A stretch of 64,000 bases of DNA, taken from assembly GCA_041666865.1 (NCBI GenBank), contig JBAYGD010000005.1, positions 50,208-114,207 of the forward strand, given 5' to 3'. Below the pieces are notes generated by a model, which saw only the letters and a program-made list of their open reading frames with translations, had not been told where the DNA came from and made no database searches. The stretch comes from Candidatus Omnitrophota bacterium. Its GTDB lineage: Bacteria; Omnitrophota; Omnitrophia; Omnitrophales; Aquincolibacteriaceae. Below, piece by piece: positions 1-39,217 of the stretch; position 1 is the first letter of the stretch; every line of letters starts with the position of its first letter. Position numbers and translations under genes: made by a program.

Positions 1-2423
1 GCCGAGCGCGAGGCGTCGATCGCCGCATTGCCGCCTCCGACCACCACCACCTTTTTTCCGACCGGCACTGATCCCCGAATATTGTATTGTTTGAGAAAAG
101 CCCCCGCCTGGACCACGCCCTCGGCGTCCTCGCCCACGACCCCAAGATTGAGATTTTGAGGCGCTCCGACACCGAGAAAAATCAGCTCAAACCCCTGATC
201 GCGCAGCTGCTGAATCGTAAAATCCTTGCCGAGCGTCTTGCCCGTCTGGATATCGACTCCAAGCTGTTCGATCATGCGGATCTCCCGGGCCACGGTCTCC
301 CGAGGAAGCCGGTAAGCAGGAATCATCTGGACCAGCATGCCGCCGGGCCGGGGCTCGGACTCGAACACCACCGGGCGGTAACCGAGGCGGGCCAGAAAAT
401 AAGCACAGGAAAGTCCGGCCGGTCCGGCCCCGACGATCGCGATTTTTCTGGAAGCGTTTTTCTCGTCCTGGCGGGACTCGGGGAGTTGGATTGTCACCTC
501 TTGATCGACCATGAAGCGTTTGACCGCGCGGATCGCGACAGGCGAATCCAGGGTCGAGCGGCGGCATTTTTCTTCGCAAGTATGAAAGCACACCCGCGCG
601 CAAACTGCCGCGAAGGGATTTCTTTCCCGGTGCAGTTTCAGCGCCTCGGCATACCTTTTTTCGCCGACAAGCGACACAAACCCGGGGACGTCCACACACG
701 CCGGGCAAGCGCTCTGACAGGAGGCGCGAACGAGCGAAGGGCAAACTCCGGCCTCACAGTGCCGGTCACGGATATGCTGTTCGTATTCTTCGCGGAAATG
801 ACGGATCGTCGACAAAACGGGATTAGGGGCCGTCTGCCCGAGGCCGCAAAGCGACGTATCCTTGATTTGAAGCCCAAGCTCAATCAGCCGCTCGATATCC
901 CCCTGCTCGCCCTGGCCCGAACAAATCCGTTCGACAATTTCGAGCATGCGCTTCGTGCCGACCCGGCACGGGACGCATTTCCCGCACGACTCCTCCTGCA
1001 CAAACTCGAGAAAAAAACGCGCCATATCGACCATGCAGGTGTCGTCGTCCATGACGATGAGGCCGCCGGAGCCCATGATGGCACTGAGCTCTTCGAGCGT
1101 TTTGTAGTCGAGCGGCACGCTCAGATGCTGTTTTGGGATGCATCCGCCGGAAGGTCCGCCCATCTGGGCCGCTTTGAACGTCTTGCCGCCTTTGACGCCG
1201 CCGCCGATGTCGTAGATCAGCTCGCCGAGCGAAGTCCCGATCGGAACCTCGACGAGGCCGGTGTTTTTGACCGAACCGGCCAGCGCGAAGACCTTCGTCC
1301 CCTTGCTCTGGTCCGTCCCGTAAGAAGCATACCAATCCGCTCCCTTGAGCAAAATCACGGGAACGTTCGCGTAGGTTTCGACATTATTCAGAAGGCTGGG
1401 CTTTCCCCAAAGCCCCTTGACAGCGGGAAAAGGCGGCCGCGGCCGGGGCTCCCCGCGCTTGCCTTCAATAGAATTCATGAGGGCCGTCTCCTCGCCGCAA
1501 ACGAACGCCCCCGATCCCATTCGGATTTCGAGGTCGAATTTGAAACCGGTGCCGAGGATATTTTCTCCGAGAAGCCCAGCCTGCCTTGCCTGTTCGATCG
1601 CTTTCGTGAGGCGCGACACCGCAAGAGGGTATTCGGCGCGCACATAGACGAAACCGCGCTCAGCCCCGATCGCAAAAGCCGCGATCGCCATGCCCTCCAT
1701 AACGCTATGAGGATCCCCTTCCAGGACACTGCGGTCCATGAACGCTCCGGGGTCTCCTTCGTCCGCATTGCAAAGCACGTATTTGACGGGGCCTTCCGAT
1801 TTGCGGGTAAATTCCCACTTGAGGCCCGTCGGAAATCCTGCGCCCCCGCGCCCGCGCAGGCCCGACTTTTTCATCTCGTCGACGACCGCTCCGGGGTTGG
1901 CAGCCGTCAGAACCTTCGCAAGGGCCTGATATCCGTCCTGGCCGATGTATTCGTCGATCCTCAAGGGATCGATTCTTCCGCAGTTCCTGAGGACGATCTT
2001 GACCTGGGTCGCAAAAAAATCGTTTTCGCTCAAAGAGGCCGCCGGCTTGTCGCCTTTGGCATTGCGGTGAATCAAGCGCTGGACGATCCTGCCGTGCCCA
2101 AGGTGCTCCTCGACGATCTCCTCGACGTCGTTCACCGAGACCTCCTCATAGAGAGTTTCCCCGGGCTGAACGACCATGACAGGCCCCTTCGCGCACGGCC
2201 CCAGACATCCGGTCTCGACGATCCGGACACTCATGCCGCGTTCGCGCATTTTTTCCTCGAGGCGCTTTTTGATATCCATCGCCCCGGAGGCAATGCACCC
2301 GGCCCCCGAGCACAAAAGGATCTGGGGCTTGGAGGCATTCCTCTCCTTCTCCTCCAGGACCCTCGCGCGGACCCGGTTCAAATCGTCGACCGATCGAATC
2401 ACCTGCGGTTCAGTCGCACTCAT
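1..2423 (-). CDS. NuoF-like flavoprotein (HndC/HydB-type, N-terminal thioredoxin-like [2Fe-2S] domain, C-terminal 2x[4Fe-4S]) fused in frame to an NfnB/GltD-like FAD/NAD(P)H oxidoreductase domain; 3' end runs off the window
   Basis: Not in the ORF track because it has no in-window stop. Manual minus-strand translation from the ATG at 2423-2421 (ATGA overlap with the stop of the NuoE-like gene) gives MSATEPQVIRSVDDLNRVRARVLEEKERNASKPQILLCSGAGCIASGAMDIKKRLEEKMRERGMSVRIVETGCLGPCAKGPVMVVQPGETLYEEVSVNDVEEIVEEHL... The same frame (codon low ends at multiples of 3) at 811..1 reads ...TIRHFREEYEQHIRDRHCEAGVCPSLVRASCQSACPACVDVPGFVSLVGEKRYAEALKLHRERNPFAAVCARVCFHTCEEKCRRSTLDSPVAIRAVKRFMVDQEVTIQLPESRQDEKNASRKIAIVGAGPAGLSCAYFLARLGYRPVVFESEPRPGGMLVQMIPAYRLPRETVAREIRMIEQLGVDIQTGK...GKKVVVVGGGNAAIDASRSA with no stop. 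These are a GltD-type Cys-rich N-terminus, an FAD Rossmann site and an NADPH Rossmann site. The stretch 2100..811 was not translated base by base. The 788-aa plus-strand ORF 87..2453 is its antisense shadow. Confidence 0.7.
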   Translation of the reverse strand, partial: MSATEPQVIRSVDDLNRVRARVLEEKERNASKPQILLCSGAGCIASGAMDIKKRLEEKMRERGMSVRIVETGCLGPCAKGPVMVVQPGETLYEEVSVNDVEEIVEEHLGHGRIVQRLIHRNAKGDKPAASLSENDFFATQVKIVLRNCGRIDPLRIDEYIGQDGYQALAKVLTAANPGAVVDEMKKSGLRGRGGAGFPTGLKWEFTRKSEGPVKYVLCNADEGDPGAFMDRSVLEGDPHSVMEGMAIAAFAIGAERGFVYVRAEYPLAVSRLTKAIEQARQAGLLGENILGTGFKFDLEIRMGSGAFVCGEETALMNSIEGKRGEPRPRPPFPAVKGLWGKPSLLNNVETYANVPVILLKGADWYASYGTDQSKGTKVFALAGSVKNTGLVEVPIGTSLGELIYDIGGGVKGGKTFKAAQMGGPSGGCIPKQHLSVPLDYKTLEELSAIMGSGGLIVMDDDTCMVDMARFFLEFVQEESCGKCVPCRVGTKRMLEIVERICSGQGEQGDIERLIELGLQIKDTSLCGLGQTAPNPVLSTIRHFREEYEQHIRDRHCEAGVCPSLVRASCQSACPACVDVPGFVSLVGEKRYAEALKLHRERNPFAAVCARVCFHTCEEKCRRSTLDSPVAIRAVKRFMVDQEVTIQLPESRQDEKNASRKIAIVGAGPAGLSCAYFLARLGYRPVVFESEPRPGGMLVQMIPAYRLPRETVAREIRMIEQLGVDIQTGKTLGKDFTIQQLRDQGFELIFLGVGAPQNLNLGVVGEDAEGVVQAGAFLKQYNIRGSVPVGKKVVVVGGGNAAIDASRS

Positions 2424-2974
2424 GAGACGGCCTTGACCTCCCTGCTTTCATAAGGATTCAAAAGCTCCTTGATTTTCGCCGGCTTCACCCTCTGATGGAC
2501 GTCGTCATTAATCATGACGGCGGGAGCAAGCCCGCAGGCGCCGAAGCAGCGGCCGACCTCGAGCGAAAAATTGCGGTCCGCGGTCGTCTCCCCGACATTG
2601 ATCGCCAGATGTTTCTTCATCCCTTCGAGCACTTCCTTGCCTCCCCGCACGTAACAGGCGGTCCCAAGGCAGACCCGAACGACGTTTTTGCCCCGCGGCA
2701 CAGTCGAAAAAAAAGAATAAAAGGAAACGACTCCGGCCACTTCACTGTAAGGGATGTTGAGCCGCTCGCTGATGCGCTTGAGGACCTTCTCGGGGAGATA
2801 ACCGAAGAGGTTTTGCGCCGTCTGGAGCACGGGGATAAGCGCCCCGTCGGTTTTCGCGTAGCTCGCGATCACTTCTTCGAGGCGGCTCAGCAAATCTTCT
2901 TCGGTCGTCTCGCAGGGGCACTGCGTCGCACTTTGAGGCACCGGATTTTCAACCCGCTTGGCTTCGTGAGTCAT
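2420..2974 (-). CDS. NuoE/HndA-like 24-kDa [2Fe-2S] thioredoxin-like subunit of an NADH-dependent flavin oxidoreductase
   Basis: 184 aa. The segment ...GKNVVRVCLGTACYVRGGKEVLEGMKKHLAINVGETTADRNFSLEVGRCFGACGLAPAVMINDDVHQRVKPAKIKELL is the classic NuoE/HoxE/HydC signature. Its stop overlaps the start of the NuoF-like fusion gene. Confidence 0.85.
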   Translation of the reverse strand: MTHEAKRVENPVPQSATQCPCETTEEDLLSRLEEVIASYAKTDGALIPVLQTAQNLFGYLPEKVLKRISERLNIPYSEVAGVVSFYSFFSTVPRGKNVVRVCLGTACYVRGGKEVLEGMKKHLAINVGETTADRNFSLEVGRCFGACGLAPAVMINDDVHQRVKPAKIKELLNPYESREVKAVS

Positions 2975-2996
2975 TCGAAACTCTCCTCAAAAAAAA

Positions 2997-3338
2997 CTAC
3001 CCTTTTAAATCTTCGATCGCCTTCTCCACAAACGTCACATAAGTCATCACGCTCGAACCGCCGACGAGGACGGCGACCATGCAAGCCTCGAGCATCTCCT
3101 CACGGCTCCACCCGAGCGTAAGGCAGTGCTCGACGGCACGCGGAATACAGACCGGGCATTTCAGACTGACGCCGGCCACCAGCAACATGAGCCATTTGGT
3201 CTTTTCCGGAATTTTACCGCTTTTGAGCGCCGCATGCTTTTCGGCAATCAAGGCGTCATACGAGCCCGGAACCGCGCTCCGGACATTGGTCATCAACCGG
3301 TTAAACTCGGACAATATTTTTTTCGGCTGGTATTCCAT
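2997..3338 (-). CDS. carboxymuconolactone decarboxylase / AhpD-like family protein
   Basis: 113 aa. AhpD-like fold pattern with Cys/His motif ...LKCPVCIPRAVEHCLTLGWSREEM... Lies between rex and the NuoE-like gene. Confidence 0.6.
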   Translation of the reverse strand: MEYQPKKILSEFNRLMTNVRSAVPGSYDALIAEKHAALKSGKIPEKTKWLMLLVAGVSLKCPVCIPRAVEHCLTLGWSREEMLEACMVAVLVGGSSVMTYVTFVEKAIEDLKG

Positions 3339-3362
3339 TGCGGCCCCCCTTCTCCGGTAGTC

Positions 3363-3980
3363 TTACTTATGGATTTCGCAAAAAAGCGATAAAAACTCGA
3401 TTGTCAGATCGATGTCTTTGACCCGGACTTCGGCCGGCACGCTGACCGAGGCCGGGGAAAAATTGACGATCCCCCTCAGCCCGGCAAGCACCATAAGATC
3501 CGCGACATCCTGGGAAAAACCCTGCGGCACGGCAATGATGCCGATATTGGCCCGCGTTTTCCGAATAATCTGCGGCGCCCGCTCAAAGGGATACACCGTC
3601 ACAAGTCCGACCTTTTTCCCGATCTTCTGGGGTTCCACGTCAAAGGCGGCCACGACCCGGATGCGGTCCTTCAGAAATCCCGGATATTTCAAAATCGCGG
3701 TGCCGAGGTTGCCCACCCCGAAAAGCGCGATCCTCAGCATGTCGTCCTGGAGGACGAAGTCCTCCAAAACATTTTTCAACTCCGCCGTCCGGTAACCGAT
3801 CCTGGGGCGCCCCACCTTGCCGAAGCTCGAAATGTCCTTGCGGATCTGGACGTCCGTGACGCCGGTGACCGCCGCAAGCTCTTTGGAGGAGACCAGCCGG
3901 TGTTTTTGCTTGATCAAATTCTCCAGGGCCCGGATGTAGCGCAGCGCCCTTGACACGGTTTTCTGCGAGATCTTCGTCAT
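3363..3980 (-). CDS. rex: redox-sensing transcriptional repressor Rex
   Basis: 205 aa. N-terminal winged-helix region (SRALRYIRALENLIKQ...LAAVTGVTDVQIRKDIS) followed by a Rossmann NADH-binding domain (LFGVGNLGTAIL...VVAAFDV...IGIIAVP). Confidence 0.9.
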   Translation of the reverse strand: MTKISQKTVSRALRYIRALENLIKQKHRLVSSKELAAVTGVTDVQIRKDISSFGKVGRPRIGYRTAELKNVLEDFVLQDDMLRIALFGVGNLGTAILKYPGFLKDRIRVVAAFDVEPQKIGKKVGLVTVYPFERAPQIIRKTRANIGIIAVPQGFSQDVADLMVLAGLRGIVNFSPASVSVPAEVRVKDIDLTIEFLSLFCEIHK

Positions 3981-4096
3981 GCCGGAACGGCCGTATGCCT
4001 TTTCAATCGTGATAAACGGAACAATTGGGAAATAATTGTATCACACCGCGGCAGGGACACAACAAAAAAATGCAAGCCGGCCGGAAAGCGTTTAGC

Positions 4097-5497
4097 TTAC
4101 CACTGGCCCGTGCGGAGATAGTCGTCGATGGAGCGCGCGGCCTTGCGCCCCGCCCCCATGGCCTCGATCACCGTCGCAGCGCCCGTGACGATGTCGCCTC
4201 CGGCCCAGACGCCCTTCTTGGTCGTTTTTCCGATGGCAGGGTCCGCGACGATGTAGCCGTACTTATTGGTCTCGAGCCCGTGCGTGGAACGCGGCACGAG
4301 TGGGCTGGCGCCGGTCCCGACGGCCACAATGACCATGTCCACCGCCCGTTTGAATTCGGAACCTTGAACGGCCACGGGACGCCGCCTGCCGGACGCGTCC
4401 GGCTCGCCGAGCTCCATGCGAATAAGTTCCATGGCGTTCACGCGCCCTTTCTCGTCGCCCAAGTAGCGGACGGGACTCATGAGGAAATCGAAAAAGATGC
4501 CCTCTTCTTCCGCATTTTCCACTTCTTCTTTCCGCGCGGGAACTTCCTGACGGCTCCGCCGGTAAACGATATGGACCTCTTCGGCCCCGAGGCGCAAAGC
4601 GCAGCGCGCGGCGTCCATGGCCACGTTGCCGGCCCCGACGACGGCGACCTGACGGCCGACTTGCACCGGGGTATCGTAAGACGGAAACCGGTAAGCCTTC
4701 ATCAGGTTGACACGGGTCAAAAATTCATTCGCCGAATACACGCCGGCAAGATTCTCGCCCGGGAGATTCATAAAAGACGGCAGGCCCGCCCCGAGCCCGA
4801 GAAAAACGGCATCGTATCCCATCTCGAAAAAATCATCCACCGTCGCGGTCCGGGCCGCGATGAAATCGAATTGAAACTCCACTCCCAGTTTTTCCAGAAC
4901 CTCGCACTCGCGCGCAACGATCGCCTTGGGCAGCCGGAACTCCGGGATCCCGTAAACAAGAACCCCGCCGGCCTTGTGAAGAGCCTCGAAGATCGTTACC
5001 TTATGACCAAGCTTGGCCAATTCCCCCGCCACGGTCAGGCCCGCCGGCCCGGACCCGACGACCGCCACTTTGCGGCCGGTCGGCGAGAGCTGTTCGGGCT
5101 TCGGGACCTTGCCTTGCCTGATTTCCCAGTCGGCCACAAAGCGTTCGAGGCGCCCGATCGCAACAGGCTCGTGTTTTTTCCCGACCACGCAGCGCGCTTC
5201 GCACTGCTCTTCCTGAGGGCACACCCGCCCGCAAATTCCGGGTAAAAAATTAGTTTCACGGACCTTGGCCAAGGCGCTTTCGAAGTCGCCGGTCGCCACC
5301 AGCTTGACGAATTCGGGAATCTTGATTTCGACGGGACACCCTTCGATGCACAGGGGTTTTTTGCACTGGATGCAGCGCTCCGCCTCGAGCTTGGCCTGCT
5401 CGGGAGTATATCCCGTGGCCACTTCGTCGTAATTACGGCGGCGTTCGCCGGGCTCCTGCTTGGGCATCTCCTGACGCGGAATTTTGAAATTCGCCAT
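4097..5497 (-). CDS. nfnB: NADH-dependent reduced ferredoxin:NADP+ oxidoreductase large subunit NfnB (GltD/SudA-like; 2x[4Fe-4S], FAD, NADPH)
   Basis: 466 aa. Cys clusters at the N-terminus (CIQCKKPLCIEGCPV..., ICGRVCPQEEQCEARC). FAD site VAVVGSGPAGLTVAGELAKLGHKVTIFE. NADPH site VAVVGAGNVAMDAARCALRLGA. Confidence 0.88.
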   Translation of the reverse strand: MANFKIPRQEMPKQEPGERRRNYDEVATGYTPEQAKLEAERCIQCKKPLCIEGCPVEIKIPEFVKLVATGDFESALAKVRETNFLPGICGRVCPQEEQCEARCVVGKKHEPVAIGRLERFVADWEIRQGKVPKPEQLSPTGRKVAVVGSGPAGLTVAGELAKLGHKVTIFEALHKAGGVLVYGIPEFRLPKAIVARECEVLEKLGVEFQFDFIAARTATVDDFFEMGYDAVFLGLGAGLPSFMNLPGENLAGVYSANEFLTRVNLMKAYRFPSYDTPVQVGRQVAVVGAGNVAMDAARCALRLGAEEVHIVYRRSRQEVPARKEEVENAEEEGIFFDFLMSPVRYLGDEKGRVNAMELIRMELGEPDASGRRRPVAVQGSEFKRAVDMVIVAVGTGASPLVPRSTHGLETNKYGYIVADPAIGKTTKKGVWAGGDIVTGAATVIEAMGAGRKAARSIDDYLRTGQW

Positions 5498-5503
5498 GGT
5501 CCC

Positions 5504-6355
5504 TTATTCCTTTATGTTCGCAAGATAACACTGATGGGAATGCTTCTCTTCCTTCTGATACGCTCCCAACCGCTGGATCAGGAGGTCAAAATTGATCTGG
5601 TGGCCGTCGAATTCCGGTCCGTCGACGCAGGTGTAACGCGTTTCATTGCCGACCTCGACGCGGCACCCTCCGCACATCCCGGTCCCGTCGATCATGATTG
5701 TATTGAGCGATACGAGCGTTCGGATCCCGGAAGGCCGGGTGACGTTGCAGACATTCTTCATCATGATGACGGGCCCCACGGCCACAACTTCCACAATCGG
5801 CCGTCCCTGCTCGAGATGGCTCTTGAGCTCGTCGGTCACGAACCCTTTGCGGCCGTAGCTTCCGTCATCGGTCGTGACGTAGACTTCGTCAGCGAAAGAG
5901 CGGAATTCCTTCTCTAGGATGACGATGTCGCGTGAGCGTGCGCCCAAAATGATCACGGTCTTGTTGCCGCTTTCCTTGTGCGCCCTGGCAATCGGAAGAA
6001 TTTCGGCGGCCCCGACCCCGCCCCCGATAAGAAAAACTTCTCCGCCGAGCTTCTCAAGCGGCGTCGGATGCCCCAGCGGACCCGCAACATTGGCAATCGC
6101 ATCCCCGGCCTTGAGGTTCCCCATCTCGGTCGTGGTCTTGCCAAGGGCCTGGACATAGACCGTAATGGTGCCGGCCGCAGAATCGGCGTCGGCAATCGTG
6201 ATCGGAAATCTCTCGCCTTCTTCGTGCAGGCGAAAAATGACGAATTGGCCGGGCTTGCGTTTGCGCGCGATCAAGGGAGCTTCGATGACGAAGCGGTTGA
6301 CCACGGGGTTGACTTTTTCCTTTTCGAGAATCCGGTACATGGTTTTTCCTTTCAA
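5504..6355 (-). CDS. nfnA: NfnA / sulfide dehydrogenase beta-like subunit (FAD and [2Fe-2S], dihydroorotate dehydrogenase electron-transfer subunit family)
   Basis: 283 aa. C-terminal Cys motif ...GTGMCGGCRVEVGNETRYTCVDGPEF is typical of PyrK/NfnA. Lies 6 bp upstream of nfnB. Confidence 0.85.
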   Translation of the reverse strand: MKGKTMYRILEKEKVNPVVNRFVIEAPLIARKRKPGQFVIFRLHEEGERFPITIADADSAAGTITVYVQALGKTTTEMGNLKAGDAIANVAGPLGHPTPLEKLGGEVFLIGGGVGAAEILPIARAHKESGNKTVIILGARSRDIVILEKEFRSFADEVYVTTDDGSYGRKGFVTDELKSHLEQGRPIVEVVAVGPVIMMKNVCNVTRPSGIRTLVSLNTIMIDGTGMCGGCRVEVGNETRYTCVDGPEFDGHQINFDLLIQRLGAYQKEEKHSHQCYLANIKE

Positions 6356-6373: not shown

Positions 6374-6805
6374 CTACCCGGCAGAAATGTAGTTGCCTAG
6401 TTCGCTGATGGTAAACTGCTGGTGGGCGATGATCTTTTTGACGATGTCACCGATGGAAACGACCCCGATGACGCGCTGATTCTGTAAAACCGGAAGATGG
6501 CGGATGCGCTTGTCGGTCATGAGCGCCAGGCATTCTTCCGTTGTTCTTTCCGGCGTAACGCCCATGACGGTCGTCGTCATGAGTTCACGGACTTTCATGG
6601 CTTTTGGGGACCGGGCGTCTTCGAGGACCTGCCGGCAGTAGTCCCTTTCCGAAAAAATTCCGGCGACGCTGTCACCGTCGAGAACGAGCAAGGCCCCGAC
6701 ATTTTTTTCGGCCATCAGTTCAAGTGCTTTCAAAACGGAATCGTCCGGACCAACTGACAAAACTTTGTTTCCCTTGTCTTTCAGAATGTCATGGACCGTA
6801 TTCAT
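6374..6805 (-). CDS. CBS-pair domain protein
   Basis: 143 aa. Two CBS-like repeats (...VGALLVLDGDSVAGIFSERD... and ...IRHLPVLQNQRVIGVVSIGDIVK...). Lies 18 bp upstream of nfnA. Confidence 0.75.
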   Translation of the reverse strand: MNTVHDILKDKGNKVLSVGPDDSVLKALELMAEKNVGALLVLDGDSVAGIFSERDYCRQVLEDARSPKAMKVRELMTTTVMGVTPERTTEECLALMTDKRIRHLPVLQNQRVIGVVSIGDIVKKIIAHQQFTISELGNYISAG

Positions 6806-6903
6806 AAGCTCCCCCTATGCCGTTGGGTGATTTTCGTGAATTATAACCCGAAGGCACCTTGCCTGGCCAGAATTCATTGTTTACAGGGGCATGGCCCCTT
6901 TGT

Positions 6904-7575
6904 CTACACCTCTAAAAACAGAACGGCCGCCGCGCAAAAGAAAATCACCACTCCCGCCAAAGCATGCCTGAAGCGTCCGAGCGGCACAAAGGAAAACCGG
7001 CTCAATCCGTAGACCCCGGCCGCCGTCAGTCCGAGCATAGTCCCGACGGTAGTGCCCCCAAAGACAATCGTCACGGCCCACATTTCCCATAAGTTTTGCC
7101 GGGCCGCAGGGATCATGACCAGAGGAATCAGGGGTTCGCAGGGCCCCAAAACAAAAATCACGAAGAGGGACCAGGGCAGTCCTTGCGCAAGCTTTCGGCG
7201 CACGGTTCTTCGGGGCAGTACAACACGGGCGTTTTCTGTGCGAAATAGGATTCCGAAAGCTTTTCGCATCCCGTAAACCAGATAAACAATCCCGAAGATC
7301 AAGAGGGCCCAACCGGCCCAGGCCCCGCGGACAGACTCGAGGGCCTCGAGCCGCATCATCTTCCACCCGAAACGCATCCCAAGAAGGCCTAGCAACACCG
7401 AAGCGCCGATATGCCCGCATCCGCATAGGGCAGTAACGGCAAACGTCTTGGCAAACGGCCACTTTCGCGCCTTGGCCATCACGATAAAAGGGACGGTGTG
7501 GTCGGGGCCCAAGAGGACATGGAAGAAGCCCAGGGAGACCGCCGCAGTCAGCAGGACACAGAATTCATGAGTCAT
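6904..7575 (-). CDS. polytopic membrane protein, putative Ni/Co-type metal transporter (NicO/HupE-UreJ-like, H-x5-DH motif)
   Basis: 223 aa with about 6 hydrophobic helices. Motif FHVLLGPDHTVP near the N-terminus plus conserved Cys/His (CGCGHIG). The family assignment comes from motif memory only. Confidence 0.4.
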   Translation of the reverse strand: MTHEFCVLLTAAVSLGFFHVLLGPDHTVPFIVMAKARKWPFAKTFAVTALCGCGHIGASVLLGLLGMRFGWKMMRLEALESVRGAWAGWALLIFGIVYLVYGMRKAFGILFRTENARVVLPRRTVRRKLAQGLPWSLFVIFVLGPCEPLIPLVMIPAARQNLWEMWAVTIVFGGTTVGTMLGLTAAGVYGLSRFSFVPLGRFRHALAGVVIFFCAAAVLFLEV

Positions 7576-7664: not shown

Positions 7665-7830
7665 GAATCAAATTCACATGCTAGTGTTTAAGTAAGGGCA
7701 AATCCCCCTTCTTGTATCCAAGAGGGCATCCTCCGATGGGGATGGAGAAATCGGGAGACGCAAAGCCACAGTCCCTACCACCCGGGCGTTCCGGGTGCGG
7801 GAGGCTGGGTTGCCGGAAAGGAAGCTTTTC

Positions 7831-8289
7831 GTGATACCTGGGGTCAAAAGGTCGCTGATCACTCTGATGATCGTGTCAGTCCCTCTCGTTTCCGCCGAAC
7901 CTATTTCCAGCCTGCAGGAGACCCTGTCTCCTGCGCCGCAAATCCTGGTTCCCGCGGAAAAGCAGCCCGTCCGACCGAAAATATCTTCTCCGGGCCGAAC
8001 CGGCGTCGCGTCCTGGTACAGCCAGTCGGACCCCTTCATCAACTTGAGGACCGCCAACGGAGAAATCTTCGACGATAAGCAGATGACCTGCGCGTCATGG
8101 CATTTTCCCTTCGGAACCCGCCTCAAAGTCACCAACCTCAAGAACGGCAAGTCCGTCATCGTCATCGTCAATGACCGCGGTCCGGCCAAGCGGCTCAACC
8201 GCCTAATCGACCTGACCCGGGCAGCTTTCCGGAAAATTTCCGACACCCGCCAGGGCCTGATCCGGGTACGCGTCACAAGACTGAACTAG
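7831..8289 (+). CDS. RlpA-like double-psi beta-barrel lytic transglycosylase-type protein, secreted
   Basis: DPBB signature GVASWYSQ...GEIFDDKQMTCASWHFPFGTRLKVTNLKNGKSVIVIVNDRGPAKRLNRLIDLTRAAFRKI. Probable GTG start at 7831 after GGAAAGGAAG, followed by a signal-like VIPGVKRSLITLMIVSVPLVSA. The listed ORF starts at 7795. Confidence 0.7.
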   Translation: MIPGVKRSLITLMIVSVPLVSAEPISSLQETLSPAPQILVPAEKQPVRPKISSPGRTGVASWYSQSDPFINLRTANGEIFDDKQMTCASWHFPFGTRLKVTNLKNGKSVIVIVNDRGPAKRLNRLIDLTRAAFRKISDTRQGLIRVRVTRLN

Positions 8290-11920: not shown

Positions 11921-12559
11921 ATGGAAACCACGTGGTGGATTGCGCCGTTTTTTGCGGGACTGTCCACAGGGCTCTATTGCCTCGGCTCCTGCTTCCCGTT
12001 CATCACGTCCTTCCTCGTCGCCGAACGCCGTAGTTTCCGGGAAAACGTCTGGCTGCTCGCGCAATTTATGGCGGGAAGACTCGCCGGTTATCTGGCTTTC
12101 GGGGCGGTTTTCGGATTTTTGGGCGCGGCCCTAGACCAGACGTGGATCCGCCTTCTCGCCGATGTCGCCATGATCGGGCTTTCCGTTCTTTTGGCCGTTT
12201 ATCTCATCCGTCTCCAGGCGCAAAAACGGCAAGCCTGCTGTCCGGCCTCCCGGCTCGGCGCCCAAAGCCCGGTCGCGATGGGGTTCTTCATGGGCATCAA
12301 TCTCTGTCCGCCGTTTCTCATCTCCCTGACTTATGTCTTTACCCTCCACAGCACTTGCCGGGGCATCGCCTATTTCCTGATTTTTTTCCTCTCGAGCTCC
12401 CTCTACTTTCTGCCGCTCGTCTTTGCGGGCGCCCTGGCCCGTCTCCGCGGCTTTCAGGCCGCGGCTCGCCTCGGCGGCTTTTTCGCGGCAGTTCTTTTTT
12501 TTGTTGTCGGGATTCTTTCCATGGCGGATAATCTGATTCGCTGGTTTCAAAAAGGCTAG
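11921..12559 (+). CDS. polytopic membrane protein with CxxxC motif (DsbD_2/CcdA-like or TauE-like)
   Basis: 212 aa with 6 predicted TM helices. LYCLGSC motif in the first helix. Ends at the TAG at 12557-12559, immediately at the left arm of the palindromic repeat. Confidence 0.4.
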   Translation: METTWWIAPFFAGLSTGLYCLGSCFPFITSFLVAERRSFRENVWLLAQFMAGRLAGYLAFGAVFGFLGAALDQTWIRLLADVAMIGLSVLLAVYLIRLQAQKRQACCPASRLGAQSPVAMGFFMGINLCPPFLISLTYVFTLHSTCRGIAYFLIFFLSSSLYFLPLVFAGALARLRGFQAAARLGGFFAAVLFFVVGILSMADNLIRWFQKG

Positions 12560-20639: not shown

Positions 20640-20830
20640 ACCGACCGTTTAGGTGTTGGGGTTGGTGCGTAACCACCACCATTCCACACGAGACCGTCAA
20701 GGTCTCGGTGGATGGCACTCAACCAACAAGGTTGAGTGCTCGCCTGCGGACTCGTGCGCTTTGCGCAGCACCAACCCGGTTGGGGTTGGTGCGTAACCAC
20801 CACTCGCCTGCGGACTCGTGCGTGGTTACG
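20640..20830. repeat. tRNA-trailer repeat block: two direct copies of GGTTGGGGTTGGTGCGTAACCACCAC ... (C)TCGCCTGCGGACTCGTGCG, plus 9-bp-stem hairpins
   Basis: Unit A is at 20653-20678 and 20778-20803. Unit B is at 20739-20758 and 20804-20822. Hairpins: cacctaaac/gtttaggtg, cactcaacc/ggttgagtg, gcaccaacc/ggttggtgc. Similar pieces occur next to tRNA-Phe (23461-23530, inverted) and tRNA-Met (39080-39140). Confidence 0.7.
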
Positions 20831-20912
20831 TGCGGCGAGAGGGAATTGAACCCCCACCCCTTTCGGGACAGGATCCTAAGTCCTGCGCGTCTGCCAGTTT
20901 CGCCATCGCCGC
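20831..20912 (-). tRNA. tRNA-Leu (anticodon TAG), long variable arm
   Basis: The minus-strand sequence GCGGCGATGGCGAAACTGGCAGACGCGCAGGACTTAGGATCCTGTCCCGAAAGGGGTGGGGGTTCAATTCCCTCTCGCCGCA folds as a cloverleaf with anticodon loop CTTAGGA. CCA is not encoded. Confidence 0.85.
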
Positions 20913-20931
20913 AAGAAGAGGGAGAGAAGAG

Positions 20932-21005
20932 TGCGCCCTGAAGGACTTGAACCTTCGACCCACTGATTAAGAGTCAGTTGCTCTACCAAACTGAGCTAAG
21001 GGCGC
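20932..21005 (-). tRNA. tRNA-Lys (anticodon CTT)
   Basis: GCGCCCTTAGCTCAGTTTGGTAGAGCAACTGACTCTTAATCAGTGGGTCGAAGGTTCAAGTCCTTCAGGGCGCA is 74 nt with a 7-bp acceptor stem and T-loop TTCAAGT. Confidence 0.9.
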
Positions 21006-21099
21006 ATGTCTTGAAACAGTACGCGATTTGATGACCGGCAAGGAATGCGTATTCTAAAGACAGTCGGGCAATTAGTAAAGGGCCTAAATCGCCGTTTTT

Positions 21100-21948
21100 T
21101 CACTGCGGGGCCATCTGCCGGATCCCCTTCGTGGCCTCCTGATAGGCCTCCCGGTTGGTCGTAAAACTTTTTCCTTCGAGCGGAAGATTGGCAAATTCTT
21201 TCTGTAGATTTTTAAAACGCTTCTGGGTAATCGGATGGGATTGGTAATAGTCGAGAAAATAAGGGCGAAGCGCCTTGTCGGCCTCGAGAAAACGGTACTG
21301 AACGTCGATGAGCCCCTGGGGATCATAACCTGCCGCGACCATGTAGCCGAGGGCCTTTGCATCGGCCCGCTGCCCTCTTTTCTCCGACCGCGGGCGGACG
21401 GCTTCGAACAGGATTTGCATTACCAGGAGCCCGGCCATCGCCGCCGCCCCAATTTGCCCCACCAAAGGAGCCGCCATGGCCGCCCCTTGAGTCATCTGAT
21501 CCATCACCTTCTTGAGTCTCGAAAGACGGGGGTCCCGCGACTGCAACTGGGCGATTTCATGGGCAAGGACGCCGGCCAGTTCCGATTCGTTATCCAGGAA
21601 CCGAAGCATGCCGGTCGTCAGGTAAACGTATCCGCCCGGCGCAGAAGTCGCGTGAATTTTCTCGTCGTACAAAATCGTGAAACTGTACGGCAGTTCCTGG
21701 CGCTGGGCGTGGTCCGCCAGCGAGTGCCCGATCTGGTTGACGTAGGACACGACTTCCGGCTCCGTATAGGGATAAAAAGCGGCCAGGATCGATTCATTGA
21801 TCTCGCGGCCGGCCGCGATTTCCCGGCCAAGCTCGCCAGTCATTGCCTGGGAGTCGTTGACGCCCTCCCCCCGGGCCTTGGCCCCCTGGGACGCACATCC
21901 TGGAAAACCGAGCACAAGGACCAGCAGGAAAGCCGTTACCGCACGCAC
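21100..21948 (-). CDS. M48-family zinc metalloprotease lipoprotein (BepA/YfgC-like)
   Basis: 282 aa. Lipobox LVLGFPGCAS and HExxH motif (LAHEIAQLQ). Confidence 0.7.
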   Translation of the reverse strand: MRAVTAFLLVLVLGFPGCASQGAKARGEGVNDSQAMTGELGREIAAGREINESILAAFYPYTEPEVVSYVNQIGHSLADHAQRQELPYSFTILYDEKIHATSAPGGYVYLTTGMLRFLDNESELAGVLAHEIAQLQSRDPRLSRLKKVMDQMTQGAAMAAPLVGQIGAAAMAGLLVMQILFEAVRPRSEKRGQRADAKALGYMVAAGYDPQGLIDVQYRFLEADKALRPYFLDYYQSHPITQKRFKNLQKEFANLPLEGKSFTTNREAYQEATKGIRQMAPQ

Positions 21949-22051
21949 GGAAAACCCCTCCTTCCGGGATTCTTCCTATCATCGGCAAAAAACAATCGGT
22001 TTTTTCTGTTTTTTGCCGCCATTCCTCTTTATAATCTTCTCCACAATACAA

Positions 22052-22125
22052 GCGCCCGTAGCTCAATTGGATAGAGCATTTGCCTTCGGAGCAAAGGGTT
22101 GCGTGTTCAAGTCACGCCGGGCGCA
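22052..22125 (+). tRNA. tRNA-Arg (anticodon TCG)
   Basis: GCGCCCGTAGCTCAATTGGATAGAGCATTTGCCTTCGGAGCAAAGGGTTGCGTGTTCAAGTCACGCCGGGCGCA is 74 nt with anticodon loop CTTCGGA. Confidence 0.85.
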
Positions 22126-22140
22126 CTCCTTCTCGCATCA

Positions 22141-22213
22141 GGGGCCATTTCCTACAGGTACAGGCCTCCTCTTACTTGCCAAGTTTAGGCCTGTACCTGT
22201 AGGAAATGGCCCC
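22141..22213. repeat. perfect 27-bp inverted-repeat element, copy 2 (same arms as 12559-12629, different 19-nt core)
   Basis: Left arm 22141-22167, core cctcttacttgccaagttt, right arm 22187-22213. Sits between convergent tRNA-Arg (+) and the ROK kinase gene (-). Confidence 0.9.
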
Positions 22214-22218
22214 TATTG

Positions 22219-23169
22219 CTATGGCTCAAACGCCAGGGCAAGAGCGCCCAAATTCCCGACACGGTCGCCGAGCGTCGTCCTCACAATGCGCACCGCGCGG
22301 TAGGCTTGCTTCCACGATTTTTGGCGGCAGGTTTTTCGGAAGGTTTTCCAAAAAACGGGCGGAGCTGACTTGAGCATGCCCCCTCCCAGGATAATTTTTC
22401 CCGGATTCAAAATATTCAGGAGATTGGCCACCCCGACCCCGAGGTAGAAACCCGCCCGCTCATAGGCCCCGAGTGCCAGCCGGTCGCCCCGCGCAGCCTG
22501 GGCCCCGATCGCCCGAGCACTCACCTGCCCGCCAGGATCCCTGTATTTTTTGAGTCCGGCCGGCGTCCCGACGCGGGACCGGACATAACGGGCCACCGCC
22601 GTCCCGGAAGCATAGGCCTCCAGCACTCCCACTTCGCCAAGCTTCCATTTTTCACCTCGGGGTTCGACCGTCATATGACCGACTTCCCCGGCGACAAAGC
22701 TGACCCCCTCGAGGAGTTTGCCGTTCGATACGATCCCTCCCCCGACTCCGGTACTGACTGTCATATAAATGAAATGCGCAACACCGCGGCCTGCTCCGAA
22801 TAATTTTTCGGCCAAAGCGGCGGCATTGGCGTCATTGGCCAAGCGCACGGGTAAACGGAACTTTCGGGAAAGTTTTTCGGCGAGAGGAAACCCCGCCCAG
22901 CCTTCCAGATGAGGAGAAACGGGGACCACGCCTTTGGCCGTGTTGACGGCTCCGGGAAGACAAACGCCGATGCCCCGAATCCGGGCTTTCGGAATGTCGG
23001 CCTCGGCCAGAAGACCCTCGAGGGCTTCGAGAAGTTTGCGCACGCACAGGGCAGCATGACGTCCCTTGAGGGTCCTGATCTCACAATGCGCGAGGATCTT
23101 TCCCCGTTCATTTCCGATGGACGCTGAAATTTTCGTCCCGCCGATATCGATCCCGATTGCGTAGCGCAT
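22219..23169 (-). CDS. ROK-family sugar kinase (glucokinase-like)
   Basis: 316 aa. N-terminal IGIDIGGTKI and a ROK Cys/His block (...GHMTV...). Confidence 0.8.
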   Translation of the reverse strand: MRYAIGIDIGGTKISASIGNERGKILAHCEIRTLKGRHAALCVRKLLEALEGLLAEADIPKARIRGIGVCLPGAVNTAKGVVPVSPHLEGWAGFPLAEKLSRKFRLPVRLANDANAAALAEKLFGAGRGVAHFIYMTVSTGVGGGIVSNGKLLEGVSFVAGEVGHMTVEPRGEKWKLGEVGVLEAYASGTAVARYVRSRVGTPAGLKKYRDPGGQVSARAIGAQAARGDRLALGAYERAGFYLGVGVANLLNILNPGKIILGGGMLKSAPPVFWKTFRKTCRQKSWKQAYRAVRIVRTTLGDRVGNLGALALAFEP

Positions 23170-23316
23170 ACGAAAATTAATATATCAGAAAGTAAAAGGG
23201 GTCACACCTATTTAAATGCGGACGGGTTCGTGGGATGCCGATGCCGTTCGCATCGGCAAGGTTTGATCGGAGGTGCACTCATAATTGGTTGCGGAATAAT
23301 AGATGGGCGTTACTAT

Positions 23317-23343
23317 GGCCCTTTTGCTAGCGGCAAAAGGGCC
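23317..23343. other. perfect 11-bp stem-loop GGCCCTTTTGC-tagcg-GCAAAAGGGCC just downstream of tRNA-Phe
   Basis: Palindrome at 23317-23343. There is no U-tract on either strand, so it could be a processing or structural element rather than an intrinsic terminator. Confidence 0.5.
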
Positions 23344-23378
23344 ATTCCACCACTCACCCTGCTGGGTTCGTGTGTGGA

Positions 23379-23451
23379 ATGGGCAGGGAGGGAATTGAAC
23401 CCCCGACACAGGGATTTTCAGTCCCTTGCTCTACCGACTGAGCTACCTGCC
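23379..23451 (-). tRNA. tRNA-Phe (anticodon GAA)
   Basis: GGGCAGGTAGCTCAGTCGGTAGAGCAAGGGACTGAAAATCCCTGTGTCGGGGGTTCAATTCCCTCCCTGCCCA is 73 nt. Confidence 0.9.
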
Positions 23452-23582
23452 CGTAAACATACATGAGCCCGCAGGCGAATGATGATCACGCACCAACCCC
23501 CACCGGGTTGGTGCCAGCATCCTCATCCTGCAAGCGTGCGATGGGACGCCAATCATACTGGACATGCAAAAATGTGTCAAGC

Positions 23583-39053: not shown

Positions 39054-39144
39054 AAGGTTGAGGGCTCGTGTCTCTTGCGCTGCACCTATCCGGTTGGGAT
39101 AGGTGCGTATCCATCACTCGCCTGCGGGCTCGTGTATGGAGACG

Positions 39145-39217
39145 TGGCGGGGAGGAGAATCGAACTCCTGACACGAGGCTTATGAGTCCTCTGCTCTACC
39201 AACTGAGCTACCCCGCC
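39145..39217 (-). tRNA. tRNA-Met (anticodon CAT), elongator-like (G1:C72). A tRNA-Ile2(LAU) identity cannot be excluded from sequence alone.
   Basis: GGCGGGGTAGCTCAGTTGGTAGAGCAGAGGACTCATAAGCCTCGTGTCAGGAGTTCGATTCTCCTCCCCGCCA is 73 nt. Lies 92 nt upstream of tilS on the same strand. Confidence 0.8.

Follow-up and report, generated by a model that had tools for sequence, protein, structure and literature searches.

Related Bifurcating Enzymes

HydABC of Acetobacterium woodii, Thermoanaerobacter kivui, and Thermotoga maritima (7q4v, 8a6t, and 7p5h) are the nearest solved relatives of all three subunits encoded at the locus described here, which lies at the left end of a 64,000-nucleotide stretch of Omnitrophota DNA (the window). 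The minimal bifurcating site of such enzymes is B1-FMN-C1, from which low-potential electrons pass from C1 through B3/B4 to ferredoxin (PMC11829005; PMC12018979). The locus shares with electron-bifurcating HydABC the FMN site, B1, C1, the B5 domain, and the zinc-hinge motif, and its HydA carries TSCSPGW as does that of A. woodii. Unlike HydABC, the HydB encoded here lacks the ferredoxin-like C-terminal domain (B3/B4) and has about 500 extra residues, a predicted NADP(H)/FAD module.

A module of the same lineage (328-372 bits) is found in StnABC/NfnABC of S. ovata, C. saccharolyticus, and T. sibiricus (8oh5, 9bov, and 9n5u), with a Lys ligand on the FAD-proximal cluster and a permuted ...RCLxC tail, and the type of BC core is common to both. 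In StnABC/NfnABC, by contrast, the NuoG/Fdh-like A subunit, a large protein, contains the module as an insertion on the mid-potential entry path, and B3/B4 remain in BfuB to serve ferredoxin. In the locus described here, the module instead forms part of B, at what would be the low-potential exit, and a true hydrogenase serves as the A subunit. NfnAB/NfnSL (T. maritima 4ylf, P. furiosus 5jca) has a canonical member in the window (4097-6340), to whose NfnB the fusion module is 40% identical; unlike NfnAB, the module has Lys for the Glu ligand, a circular permutation at the CxxC segment, and no NfnS partner domain. The [FeFe] group A2 "glutamate synthase-linked" hydrogenases (HydDB) likewise combine a hydrogenase with a GltD-like NADPH flavoprotein. 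However, the A2 rule of HydDB requires a GltD-type neighbor without a NuoF domain, and the NuoF present here leads to A3 by that rule.

The predicted architecture matches sub-type I BfuABC, a group A3 [FeFe]-hydrogenase described from genomes (Zheng and Huang, 2024, mSystems, PMC11406978). As here, the B3/B4 domain of its BfuB is replaced by a DPD_II-type 2x[4Fe-4S] domain and a C-terminal FAD/NAD(P)-binding domain; bfuC and an M3-type bfuA accompany the gene, the small BfuD being present or absent. Ser at the fifth P1 position is common in this sub-type, in agreement with the HydA here. Sub-type I ranges over Spirochaetota, Planctomycetota, Verrucomicrobiota, and other phyla (PMC11406978); that paper covers Hydrogenedentota and reference genomes, and describes neither Omnitrophota members, nor linkage to rex, CMD, and nfnAB, nor a Lys ligand of the Stn type, nor a permuted tail.

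Organization of the Locus

The genes rex, CMD/AhpD-like, hydC, hydB* (the fusion), and hydA form a five-gene unit on the minus strand, the first four at the left end of the window (Table 1) and hydA just outside it. Pfam and NCBIfam searches bore out the initial annotation of the NuoE-like, CMD/AhpD-like, Rex, NfnB, and NfnA genes, all on the minus strand, with rex beside the CMD/AhpD-like gene upstream of the fusion unit.

Table 1. Features of the locus in window coordinates.
Feature	Position	Strand	Evidence and remarks
hydB*/bfuB*, 5' part	1..2423	-	Fused HydB (NuoF-like) and Stn-type NfnL-like NADP(H)/FAD module; Pfam, NCBIfam; rest beyond position 1
NfnL-like module, window part	1..767	-	PF14691, PF07992; Fer4_20 2x[4Fe-4S], FAD Rossmann GAGPAG, start of second Rossmann GGGNAA
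Zinc/B2 hinge motif H550-x5-C556-x4-C561 (HIRDRHCEAGVC)	741..776	-	Aligns to EYEAHIRDKKCPAGVC; fusion point directly after
NuoF core: FMN/NAD(H) domain, SLBB, [4Fe-4S] B1 (Cys480, 483, 486, 526)	774..1874	-	PF01512, PF10531, PF10589
N-terminal thioredoxin-like [2Fe-2S] domain (B5 site; Cys38, 43, 73, 77)	2106..2336	-	PF01257, residues 30-106
hydC/bfuC, NuoE-like [2Fe-2S] subunit (cluster C1)	2420..2974	-	PF01257 8.4e-51; translationally coupled to the fusion via ATGA overlap
CMD/AhpD-like small protein, CxxC motif (CPVC)	2997..3338	-	PF02627 8.9e-08
rex, redox-sensing NADH/NAD+ repressor	3363..3980	-	NCBIfam NF003995 201.6 bits (cut-off 126); Put_DNA-bind_N and CoA_binding
Candidate Rex operator AATTGTTCCGTTTATCACGATT	4005..4026	-	24 nt upstream of rex ATG, just downstream of TACAAT -10-like hexamer
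nfnB (NfnL), canonical large subunit, Glu-type ligand motif LERF	4097..5497	-	4ylf_B 2.9e-173 (580 bits), 5jca_L 3.3e-146; TIGR01316 601 bits
nfnA (NfnS), canonical small subunit	5504..6340	-	5jca_S 9.3e-96 (323 bits), 4ylf_A 2.6e-75; NF004862 390.8 bits
CBS-pair protein, first gene of CBS-nfnA-nfnB group	6374..6805	-	PF00571 2.6e-24
Sigma-70-like promoter TGGCCA-18-TATAAT, upstream of CBS gene	6840..6869	-	Consensus scan, 10/12 matches; weak

The fusion had been proposed from manual translation as one continuous gene of at least 807 codons, open to the window start. Translation of the region gives 807 codons without a stop, beginning MSATEPQ..., with all Pfam domains in frame, so that no in-frame stop splits the NuoF-like and GltD-like parts. 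Its first codon runs into the NuoE-like ORF's stop codon (ctcATGAgt), again as proposed. On the source contig, the full-length protein has 1060 aa and is 100% identical to the window part; the GltD-like module is therefore not complete in the window, as had been claimed, but truncated at residue 807, inside the second Rossmann motif (GGGNAAID). The gene was missing from the ORF list because it runs past the window end. In its place the list gives an antisense shadow ORF at 87-2453 (+) of 788 aa.

The fusion is not an assembly artefact. At least 8000 scored candidates, all at E <= 1e-30, include NuoF-only and GltD-only relatives, and the top relatives among the matches listed are fusion proteins, the complete ones being 1014-1060 aa long. 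Genome loci of many phyla yielded 70 full-length fusions, and the family retains about 70% identity across phyla.

Domains and Cluster Ligands of the Fused Subunit

The window-resident part of the fusion contains, in order, 2Fe-2S_thioredx, Complex1_51K (residues 184-355, 2e-47), SLBB, NADH_4Fe-4S (466-550, 1.7e-35), Fer4_20 (553-643, 8e-18), and Pyr_redox_2 (660-805) domains. These matches substantiate the claim that the N-terminal part is NuoF-like. Its best solved relatives are A. woodii HydB (7q4v_B, 783 bits), NiFe-HydB, and S. ovata StnB. All 70 relatives retain the B1 cysteines, along with H550, C556, and C561 of the hinge. The B5 part of the core is not universal: all four of its cysteines are present in this protein and Cys73/77 in 69 of the 70 relatives, but Cys38/43 are found in 41 and absent from 29.

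The hinge HIRDRHCEAGVC aligns to EYEAHIRDKKCPAGVC of A. woodii, T. kivui, and A. mobile HydB and of S. ovata StnB, matching the HydB/StnB form HIRDKKCPAGxC, and the NfnL-like sequence begins past this motif. The ferredoxin-like domain of BfuB that carries clusters B3/B4 is absent from the fusion, according to both Pfam and the hinge alignment.

The C-terminal module had been described as GltD/NfnB-like. It is indeed an NfnB/GltD-related flavoprotein, but it lies nearer the Stn/Nfn-Bfu lineage (Csac NfnA, 9bov_A, 372 bits; Tsi NfnA, 360; Sov StnC, 328) than T. maritima NfnB (298 bits) or plain GltD (167 bits). It aligns end to end with residues 101-567 of Csac NfnA, including the permuted tail ...RCLRC. 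The ligands within the window are Cys569, 573, 608, 612, 616, and 620, together with Lys635, the Stn-type cluster ligand where NfnB has Glu. Across the 70 fusions, position 635 is K in 55, H in 15, and E in none; Cys569, 573, 612, 616, 620, 1032, and 1035 are kept in every one. The GGGNAA motif presumably binds NADPH, and the YRR motif, found in 69/70, probably takes part in this binding.

The Associated Hydrogenase Genes

A complete hydA [FeFe]-hydrogenase gene (590 aa) follows the fusion gene after 12 nt on the source contig, just beyond window position 1. Its product has Fe_hyd_lg_C and Fe_hyd_SSU domains with intact P1, P2, and P3 motifs; among solved proteins it is closest to A. woodii HydA (7q4v_A, 620 bits). 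The best PDB relatives of HydC are the HydC proteins of T. kivui (8a6t_C), A. mobile, and A. woodii. HydE/F/G-type maturase genes are located on the same contig, past hydA. The order nuoE-like, fusion, hydA is found in 11/11 orthologs (60-71% identical) with enough downstream DNA, as well as in all six further Omnitrophota-like contigs examined; in close orthologs hydA lies 0-150 nt after the fusion gene or overlaps it. The invariance of this trio in close orthologs argues for a HydABC-type hydrogenase rather than a second stand-alone transhydrogenase.

The initial annotation had favored a Stn/Bfu-type NADH/ferredoxin/NADP transhydrogenase. The fusion itself, its HydB/BfuB-like N-terminal part, and its Stn-type module stand, but the stand-alone unit does not, since hydA follows at 12 nt. 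That the NuoE-like protein and the fusion alone constitute a self-contained two-subunit Stn/Nfn-Bfu-type transhydrogenase for NADH, ferredoxin, and NADP, with no need of a hydrogenase, is highly improbable. Such an enzyme would agree with the Lys ligand and permuted tail of the module and with the Bfu-like BC core, and a transhydrogenase-like role is plausible in Acidobacteriota and certain other phyla, where the third gene encodes only a NuoG-N-terminal-like FeS protein of about 240 aa without a catalytic domain. Against it stand the close linkage of a complete hydA here and in all close orthologs, the absence of a NuoG/Fdh-like StnC scaffold at this locus, the missing B3/B4 domain that Stn uses to bind ferredoxin, and a canonical NfnAB already adjoining in the genome.

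A second, canonical hydC-bfuD-hydB-hydA set, whose HydB has the ferredoxin-like C-terminal domain, adjoins the trio. The two sets are 55% (B), 35% (C), and 47% (A) identical, a divergence that speaks for distinct functions.

Proposed Reaction

HydC, HydB*, and HydA probably, though far from certainly, constitute a Bfu/HydABC-type trimeric [FeFe]-hydrogenase that reaches NADP(H) via the NfnL-like module; coupling of H2 to both NAD(H) and NADP(H) is the most likely activity judging from the sequences. In favor of this reading, all three subunits are nearest, among solved proteins, to proven bifurcating HydABC (7q4v_B, 8a6t_C, and 7q4v_A). The enzyme retains the bifurcating core (FMN with its NAD(H) site, [4Fe-4S] B1, [2Fe-2S] C1, the B5 domain, and the zinc hinge). 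The mobile B3/B4 domain of HydB, which passes low-potential electrons to ferredoxin in characterized enzymes, is exchanged exactly at the hinge for an NfnL-like module of the Stn/Nfn-Bfu type, equipped with FAD, an NADP(H) site, and a pair of [4Fe-4S] clusters, one of them Lys-ligated. Electrons from H2 would pass through the HydA clusters to the B1-FMN-C1 site, where the high-potential pair would reduce NAD+ at FMN, and the low-potential pair would travel from C1 through the two NfnL-type clusters and FAD to NADP+. In the reverse direction, which is physiologically likely, NADH and NADPH would be confurcated to H2, so that the cell could shed NADH as H2 without ferredoxin at about 100 Pa H2; the adjacent NfnAB would connect the ferredoxin and NADPH pools. 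The NADP(H) specificity, the placement of NADP(H) on the low-potential branch, and the stoichiometry are predictions of this scheme. NAD and NADP have the same standard potential, and the scheme depends on in vivo ratios.

It is quite doubtful that the loss of B3/B4 left a non-bifurcating NAD(P)H-dependent hydrogenase, exchanging electrons between H2 and either nucleotide independently, as the S. wolfei HydABC that lacks B3/B4 does with NADH alone. The canonical definition of Bfu demands B3/B4, and HydB proteins without them are reported not to bifurcate but to work with NADH at low H2 (summarized in PMC11406978). However, the flavobicluster (B1, FMN, C1) and the hinge are intact at 70/70, a two-cluster module of about 500 aa stands exactly in the place of B3/B4, which is no simple loss, and the identity of about 70% across phyla suggests a constrained, coupled machine.

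Unlikely, but to be weighed, is continued use of ferredoxin by a HydABC-type hydrogenase, which would then handle four substrates (H2, NAD, NADP, and ferredoxin), the module serving as NADP(H) site and ferredoxin-docking cluster as in NfnSL and maybe as a second, FAD-based bifurcation center. Ferredoxin could dock on the NfnL-like module: the two homologous [4Fe-4S] clusters of NfnSL are its ferredoxin exit (PMC10482914), and Greening et al. suggested ferredoxin at the GltA domain of the HydB of an archaeal relative. Zheng and Huang (PMC11406978) considered two bifurcating centers, with a possible second bifurcating FAD, and nfnAB is a frequent neighbor in Omnitrophota, indicating ferredoxin-linked redox traffic. 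Yet in modules of the StnC/NfnA type, to which this one belongs, FAD ends a single path and was judged non-bifurcating (PMC12018979; PMC10482914). Moreover, the ligand at the proximal cluster is Lys or His, in no case the low-potential Glu seen in NfnL, and an NfnS-like partner is neither fused nor invariably linked.

Rex Operator and Neighboring Genes

Hydrogenase-related genes are known Rex targets, and the published Rex consensus is TTGTGAAN4TTCACAA, with a spacing of N4 rather than the N6 quoted in the initial annotation. The operator search recommended there gave a conserved Rex-like site, AATTGTTCCGTTTATCACGATT, before rex, and neither a site for nfnAB nor a canonical box within 3 mismatches. 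The window contains no second site like this candidate, which departs from the canonical 18-mer at 5/14 specified positions. The same 22-mer is present upstream of rex in loci L084, L085, and L087, and upstream of the nuoE-like gene in L085 and L087; the operator matrix was built from four related sites, with L087 left out. Rex presumably represses the rex-CMD-hydCBA unit, and would do so, together with its own gene, via the divergent operator until NADH rises. The suggestion that two enzymes answer to one redox sensor is not supported for nfnAB, since the sole Rex-like site lies downstream of that pair. The sigma-70-like promoter upstream of the CBS gene is weak because such sites are as many in the region as chance would give.

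The classical nfnA-nfnB pair is canonical, as first described; nfnA begins at an ATG (278 aa), or at a TTG at 6355 that would give 283 aa. The CBS-pair gene occupies the same place in L084. In Omnitrophota the CMD gene accompanies rex or hyd genes, as a rex-CMD pair in L084, L085, and L087 and after hydA in L086.

Gene Structure and Domain Organization

Translation of the fusion gene, hydB*, gives one open frame that joins a NuoF-like protein to a GltD-like module, with a start that overlaps the stop of the NuoE-like gene (hydC), in agreement with the initial annotation. All of the domains recognized by Pfam lie in this frame. The NuoF-like nature of the N-terminal part, which had also been proposed, is confirmed by PF01512 and PF10589 as well as by the NCBIfam model nuoF_fam (4.7e-153), and GltD-type NCBIfam models match at ~1e-84. 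The GltD-like module had been taken as complete within the window; however, the window edge cuts it at residue 807. A database protein from Candidatus Omnitrophota (P0001, 1060 aa) is 100% identical across these 807 residues, and extension of the contig past position 1 recovers the full 1060-aa fusion, followed by hydA. The gene is absent from the mechanical ORF list because it runs off the window. An antisense shadow ORF, which spans the fusion gene, appears in that list. Such genes are currently labeled "NuoF" or "FAD-dependent oxidoreductase".

Coordinates of genes, domains and sites in the window, the full-length fusion protein and related loci
Feature	Sequence	Position	Strand	Details
hydB* (fusion)	window	1-2423	-	807 stop-free codons
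ATG of fusion	window	2423-2421	-	shares ATGA with TGA of hydC
Antisense shadow ORF	window	87-2453	+	788 aa
hydC/bfuC (NuoE-like)	window	2420-2974	-	184 aa
CMD (AhpD-like, CxxC)	window	2997-3338	-	
rex	window	3363-3980	-	
Conserved 22-mer, candidate operator (same element as next row)	window	4005-4026		TTGTTCCGTTTATCACGA
Conserved 22-mer	window	4005-4026	-	AATTGTTCCGTTTATCACGATT
nfnAB	window	4097-6340	-	genes 6 nt apart
Hydrophobic protein	window	6904-7575	-	223 aa
c-di-GMP-I riboswitch aptamer	window	7687-7817	+	RF01051, 42 bits (gathering score 35)
DPBB_1/RlpA-like ORF	window	7795-8289	+	
tRNA genes (Leu, Lys, Arg, Phe, Met)	window	20830-23452 and 39144-39217		five genes
Thioredoxin-like [2Fe-2S] domain	fusion	residues 30-106		
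NuoF FMN domain	fusion	residues 184-355		PF01512, 2e-47
SLBB domain	fusion			same frame
NuoF [4Fe-4S] domain	fusion	residues 466-550		PF10589, 1.7e-35
Fer4_20	fusion	residues 553-643		
Pyr_redox_2 Rossmann region	fusion	residues 660-805		
C-terminal tail	P0001	residues 998-1036		outside window
bfuC-bfuB-bfuA	L001	9450-14968		contiguous
Second, canonical hyd set	L001	15102-23183		
Fused B subunit with non-HydA partner	L028	6743-9397		
Fused B subunit with non-HydA partner	L053	13041-16106		
Fused B subunit with non-HydA partner	L069	13218-13961		
Fused B subunit with non-HydA partner	L064	13128-16433		
Archaeal fusion locus	L060	9499-13827		Promethearchaeota Loki_b31
Archaeal fusion locus	L073			uncultured archaeon

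Gene Neighborhood and Hydrogenase Assignment

The window belongs to a 204-kb contig (L001), in which window position w corresponds to position 12424 - w. The gene order in L001 is CBS, nfnA and nfnB; rex, CMD, the nuoE-like gene and the fusion; and then hydA. All of the neighbors encoded within the window (NuoE-like, CMD/AhpD-like, Rex, NfnB, NfnA and the CBS protein) are on the minus strand, and rex, CMD, the nuoE-like gene and the fusion are consecutive; the initial annotation had described both the rex adjacency and, apart from CBS, these neighbors. A complete hydA, which encodes a 590-aa protein with Fe_hyd_lg_C and Fe_hyd_SSU domains, begins 12 nt past the fusion, outside the window. The window edge had hidden this gene and so led to the reading of hydC and the fusion as a second transhydrogenase beside nfnAB. 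The wider context does not support that reading; judged from gene order and sequence, the supposed transhydrogenase is in fact a predicted hydrogenase subunit.

A scan of species-representative genomes gave 80 loci, which were surveyed by ORF calling and BLAST, and in nearly all of them a nuoE-like gene precedes the fusion. Full-length hydA lies directly downstream in 11/11 loci of 60-71% identity with enough downstream DNA (labeled Hyphomicrobiales, Nitrospiraceae, Spirochaetes, Prolixibacteraceae, Verrucomicrobiota, Planctomycetota and Brocadiia), and the same trio occurs in six further metagenomic contigs, where the proteins are 73-91% identical. The partner of the fused B subunit in the clade of the window is, from these predicted proteins, a hydrogenase.

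The subunits themselves point in the same direction. In HydA, the H-cluster motifs P1, P2 and P3 are intact (TSCSPGW, MPCTAK and EVMTCPGGCIGG), and the best solved relative is the bifurcating HydA of A. woodii (620 bits). The TSCSPGW motif was considered as an inactivating change, but this was rejected because the characterized A. woodii HydA shares it and because it dominates among the partner HydAs. The hydC product matches PF01257 (8.4e-51), and its best PDB relatives are the HydC proteins of T. kivui, A. mobile and A. woodii. The N-terminal 550 residues of the fusion are nearest to A. woodii HydB (783 bits), NiFe-HydB, S. ovata StnB and T. kivui HydB. The fusion has the FMN/NAD(H) site and [4Fe-4S] B1 cluster by which BfuB is recognized in the Bfu family, together with the four cysteines of the B5 domain and the B2/Zn hinge. 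However, Pfam and alignment detect no Fer4-type dicluster of the ferredoxin-like C-terminal domain (B3/B4) in the fusion, where the hinge leads into Fer4_20 and Pyr_redox_2. The fusion matches a BfuB in which DPD_II (2x[4Fe-4S]) and FAD/NAD(P) domains replace B3/B4. The presence of a GltD-type domain raised the [FeFe] group A2 (glutamate synthase-linked) as an alternative. The HydDB rule for A2 asks for a neighboring protein with a GltD-type domain and without a NuoF domain; the neighbor here has both, which rejects A2 and places this hydrogenase in A3.

Next in L001 is a second, canonical set, which consists of hydC, a 117-aa 2Fe-2S protein (BfuD-like), hydB and hydA. Its HydB2 carries the ferredoxin-like C-terminal domain. 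HydB2 is without the N-terminal B5 cysteines. Compared with this HydABC(D) paralog, the subunits of the hydB* enzyme are 55% (B), 35% (C) and 47% (A) identical. This set is followed by TM1266-like, aspartase-like, hydF and radical-SAM/BATS genes, so that HydF domains and a Radical_SAM+BATS maturase gene lie downstream of the hyd genes, in keeping with the H-cluster maturases HydE, HydF and HydG expected beside a group A3 enzyme; L086, another relative, has two radical-SAM genes. In Omnitrophota, nfnAB is a frequent neighbor of hyd genes.

The Junction and the NfnL-like Module

At the junction of the fusion, each residue of EYEQHIRDRHCEAGVCPSL has its counterpart in EYEAHIRDKKCPAGVC, from solved HydB and StnB proteins. 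The stretch takes in a Cys-rich linker, which in the HydB and StnB structures holds a zinc at the B2 site and joins the ferredoxin-like C-terminal domain (PMC10482914, PMC11829005). Past the junction, the B3/B4 dicluster domain comes next in HydB, whereas the fusion continues into an NfnL-like module. This module aligns end to end with residues 101-567 of C. saccharolyticus NfnA (372 bits), followed by T. sibiricus NfnA (360) and S. ovata StnC (328); the scores are lower for T. maritima NfnB (298), P. furiosus NfnL (260) and GltD (167). The relationship to Bfu and Stn enzymes noted in the initial annotation thus holds, with the core nearest to HydB/StnB and the module nearest to NfnA/StnC.

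Two further characters place the module with NfnA and StnC. First, Lys635 (in AVKRF) aligns with LKRF of the T. sibiricus (Tsi), C. saccharolyticus (Csac) and S. ovata (Sov) proteins. A lysine ligates the FAD-proximal cluster in StnC/NfnA, where NfnB has a glutamate (PMC10482914, PMC12018979), and it is reported to be strictly conserved in StnC (PMC10482914). The NfnB of the window itself has LERF at this position. Second, the tail of P0001 (ERRRSNFDEV...AKRCLRC) matches residues 7-45 of NfnB (ERRRNYDEV...AERCIQC) with a pairwise E-value of 1e-4, and this alignment indicates that the tail is the circular permutation common to NfnA/StnC. Most of the ligands are invariant over 70 full-length fusions, and glutamate is never found at position 635. 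The YRR motif that follows the second Rossmann motif is also present in the canonical, NADPH-binding NfnB of the window, and would specify NADPH by analogy with GltD/NfnB enzymology.

Conservation of ligands and of the YRR motif counted over 70 full-length fusions
Site	Residues	Conserved
B1 cluster	Cys480, 483, 486, 526	70/70
Hinge	H550, C556, C561	70/70
Module clusters	Cys569, 573, 612, 616, 620, 1032, 1035	70/70
Module cluster	Cys608	53/70; replaced in 17/70
Proximal-cluster ligand	K635	K 55/70, H 15/70, Glu 0/70
YRR	820-822	69/70
B5 domain	Cys73, 77	69/70
B5 domain	Cys38, 43	41/70

Relation to Known Systems

In sub-type I BfuABC, B3/B4 is replaced by DPD_II and an FAD/NAD(P) domain (Zheng and Huang, 2024; PMC11406978). 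Sub-type I occurs in several of the phyla met here, with or without BfuD, and a Ser at the fifth P1 position is noted for it (PMC11406978). Its carriers in culture include Syntrophus gentianae DSM 8423 and Desulfotignum balticum DSM 7044 (PMC11406978). A GltA domain has also been reported on the HydB of archaeal hybrid hydrogenases (Greening et al., 2024). The window locus has exactly the architecture of group A3 sub-type I. Compared with the core of the Bfu family (Schut et al., 2022), C1, FMN/B1, B5 and the hinge are present and B3/B4 is missing. With StnABC/NfnABC, the locus shares the NfnL-like FAD/NADP(H) module and the Lys at the FAD-proximal ligand position. In those enzymes, however, a large NuoG/Fdh-like A subunit of 955-1178 aa contains the module and feeds B1, whereas here the module is fused to the B subunit, and the A subunit is a HydA with an H-cluster domain. 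On the other hand, the neighboring nfnAB genes conform to NfnAB (NfnSL), with a PyrK-like small subunit (nfnA against 5jca_S, 323 bits) and a GltD-like large subunit (nfnB against 4ylf_B, 580 bits) that has the Glu ligand, and are canonical, as had been annotated.

Since this architecture has already been described computationally, the window locus is another example of it, from Omnitrophota. To our knowledge, four points add to what has been published: the fusion sits exactly at the zinc hinge; the module is of Stn type, with its Lys ligand and permuted tail; the A-subunit partners vary; and the locus is linked to Rex, CMD and nfnAB, with a divergent candidate operator. This case is of a kind already known, but the enzymology of the widespread fused-HydB subtype can be put to the test.

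Distribution and Other Partners

The fusion is carried by thousands of database proteins, which come from over 15 bacterial phyla and also from some archaea. In distant fusions (43-55% identity), the partner is an FdhA-like molybdopterin protein, a NuoG-N-terminal-like FeS protein of ~240 aa, or a Pyr_redox_2-containing protein. Because the partners vary across phyla, the fused B subunit is a modular unit, and this variety suggests that it may serve as a portable NAD/NADP module. Archaeal MAGs contain homologues (43-45% identity), accompanied by a NuoE-like gene as well as a small Fer2_4 protein.

Rex and a Candidate Operator

Rex matches NF003995 at 201.6 bits (cut-off 126) and contains a winged-helix N-terminal domain (PF06971) and an NADH-binding Rossmann domain (PF02629). 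The published Rex operator is TTGTGAAN4TTCACAA. With as many as 3 mismatches allowed, this sequence was found in neither the window nor L001, and scoring of Rex half-sites with spacers of 2-8 gave weak matches only. A candidate was found only through comparison of orthologous intergenic regions. It is a conserved 22-mer, unique within the 64-kb window, that lies directly downstream of a -10-like hexamer, with the rex ATG 24 nt further on, and that retains the TTGT-N10-ACAA frame of Rex boxes. The 22-mer is also upstream of rex in the related loci L084 and L085; in L085, rex lies apart from the nuoE-like gene, which has a copy of the 22-mer upstream of its own. A matrix built from these four sites, with L087 excluded from training, found two further sites in L087 at the same two positions, and in L089 it placed a near-canonical ATGTGAAAGACATCACGA ahead of the nuoE-like gene. 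Both 3981-4096 and 6806-6903 had been proposed as regions in which to search for Rex operators. The first of these regions contains the divergent 22-mer; the second has just a TCAC(G/A)A half-site near TATAAT and was rejected.

The 22-mer is thus a candidate Rex operator, which may control rex-CMD-hydC-hydB*-hydA. The intergenic gaps in this series are, in order, 24, 22, -4 and 12 nt, with no terminator predicted in them, and the terminator and promoter scan counts are at chance expectation (12 vs 10.7 and 2 vs 2.0). No operator of this type was found in front of CBS-nfnAB. We know of no Rex operator described previously for Omnitrophota, for which this locus offers a divergent candidate.

The CMD/AhpD-like protein accompanies rex or hyd genes in 5/8 Omnitrophota-type loci (L001, L084, L085, L086 and L087). 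Its possible roles include peroxide protection and redox relay.

Proposed Function

In Bfu structures, B1-FMN-C1 forms the bifurcating site, NAD(H) binds at the FMN, and the mobile C1 domain carries low-potential electrons to B3/B4 and then to ferredoxin (PMC12018979, PMC11829005). The fusion retains everything up to the hinge, and B3/B4 alone is exchanged for two [4Fe-4S] clusters, an FAD and a presumptive NADP(H) site. In the simplest reading, NADP(H) would lie on the low-potential branch, with the reaction 2 H2 + NAD+ + NADP+ <-> NADH + NADPH + 2 H+, and the flavobicluster would pass low-potential electrons to an NADP(H)-reducing flavin in place of ferredoxin. Ferredoxin could, however, still dock on the NfnL-like module, or the enzyme could contain two bifurcation centers, both of which have been proposed by published authors; or it may be an NAD(P)H hydrogenase that does not bifurcate. 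A search of the literature found no biochemical work on any member of the fused-HydB subtype. We suggest only tentatively, and with considerable doubt, that the hydB* enzyme might be a ferredoxin-independent hydrogenase that links the NAD and NADP pools, and that the fused B subunit might give Fdh-like and minimal FeS partners the same dual coupling.

A ferredoxin-independent enzyme of this kind would catalyze the above reaction by bifurcation or confurcation. Textbook in vivo potentials lie at about -280 mV (NAD) and about -380 mV (NADP). With these values, an H2 pressure of roughly 100 Pa would bring the reaction close to equilibrium, and below it NADH could be oxidized to H2 without ferredoxin. 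The canonical HydABC(D) paralog next door and nfnAB, a possible bridge between the ferredoxin and NADPH pools, fit a non-redundant role for the hydB* enzyme. If NADP(H) does take the place of ferredoxin, this would be a new coupling of H2 to both nucleotide pools, and the H2 thresholds and redox balancing of uncultured fermenters, such as Omnitrophota, would be inferred differently.

Other Features of the Window

The hydrophobic protein encoded upstream of the CBS gene has no Pfam or NCBIfam match, and L084 has a 226-aa protein in the equivalent place. The c-di-GMP-I aptamer is directly upstream of the DPBB_1/RlpA-like ORF and overlaps its start. Five tRNA genes lie further along the window.
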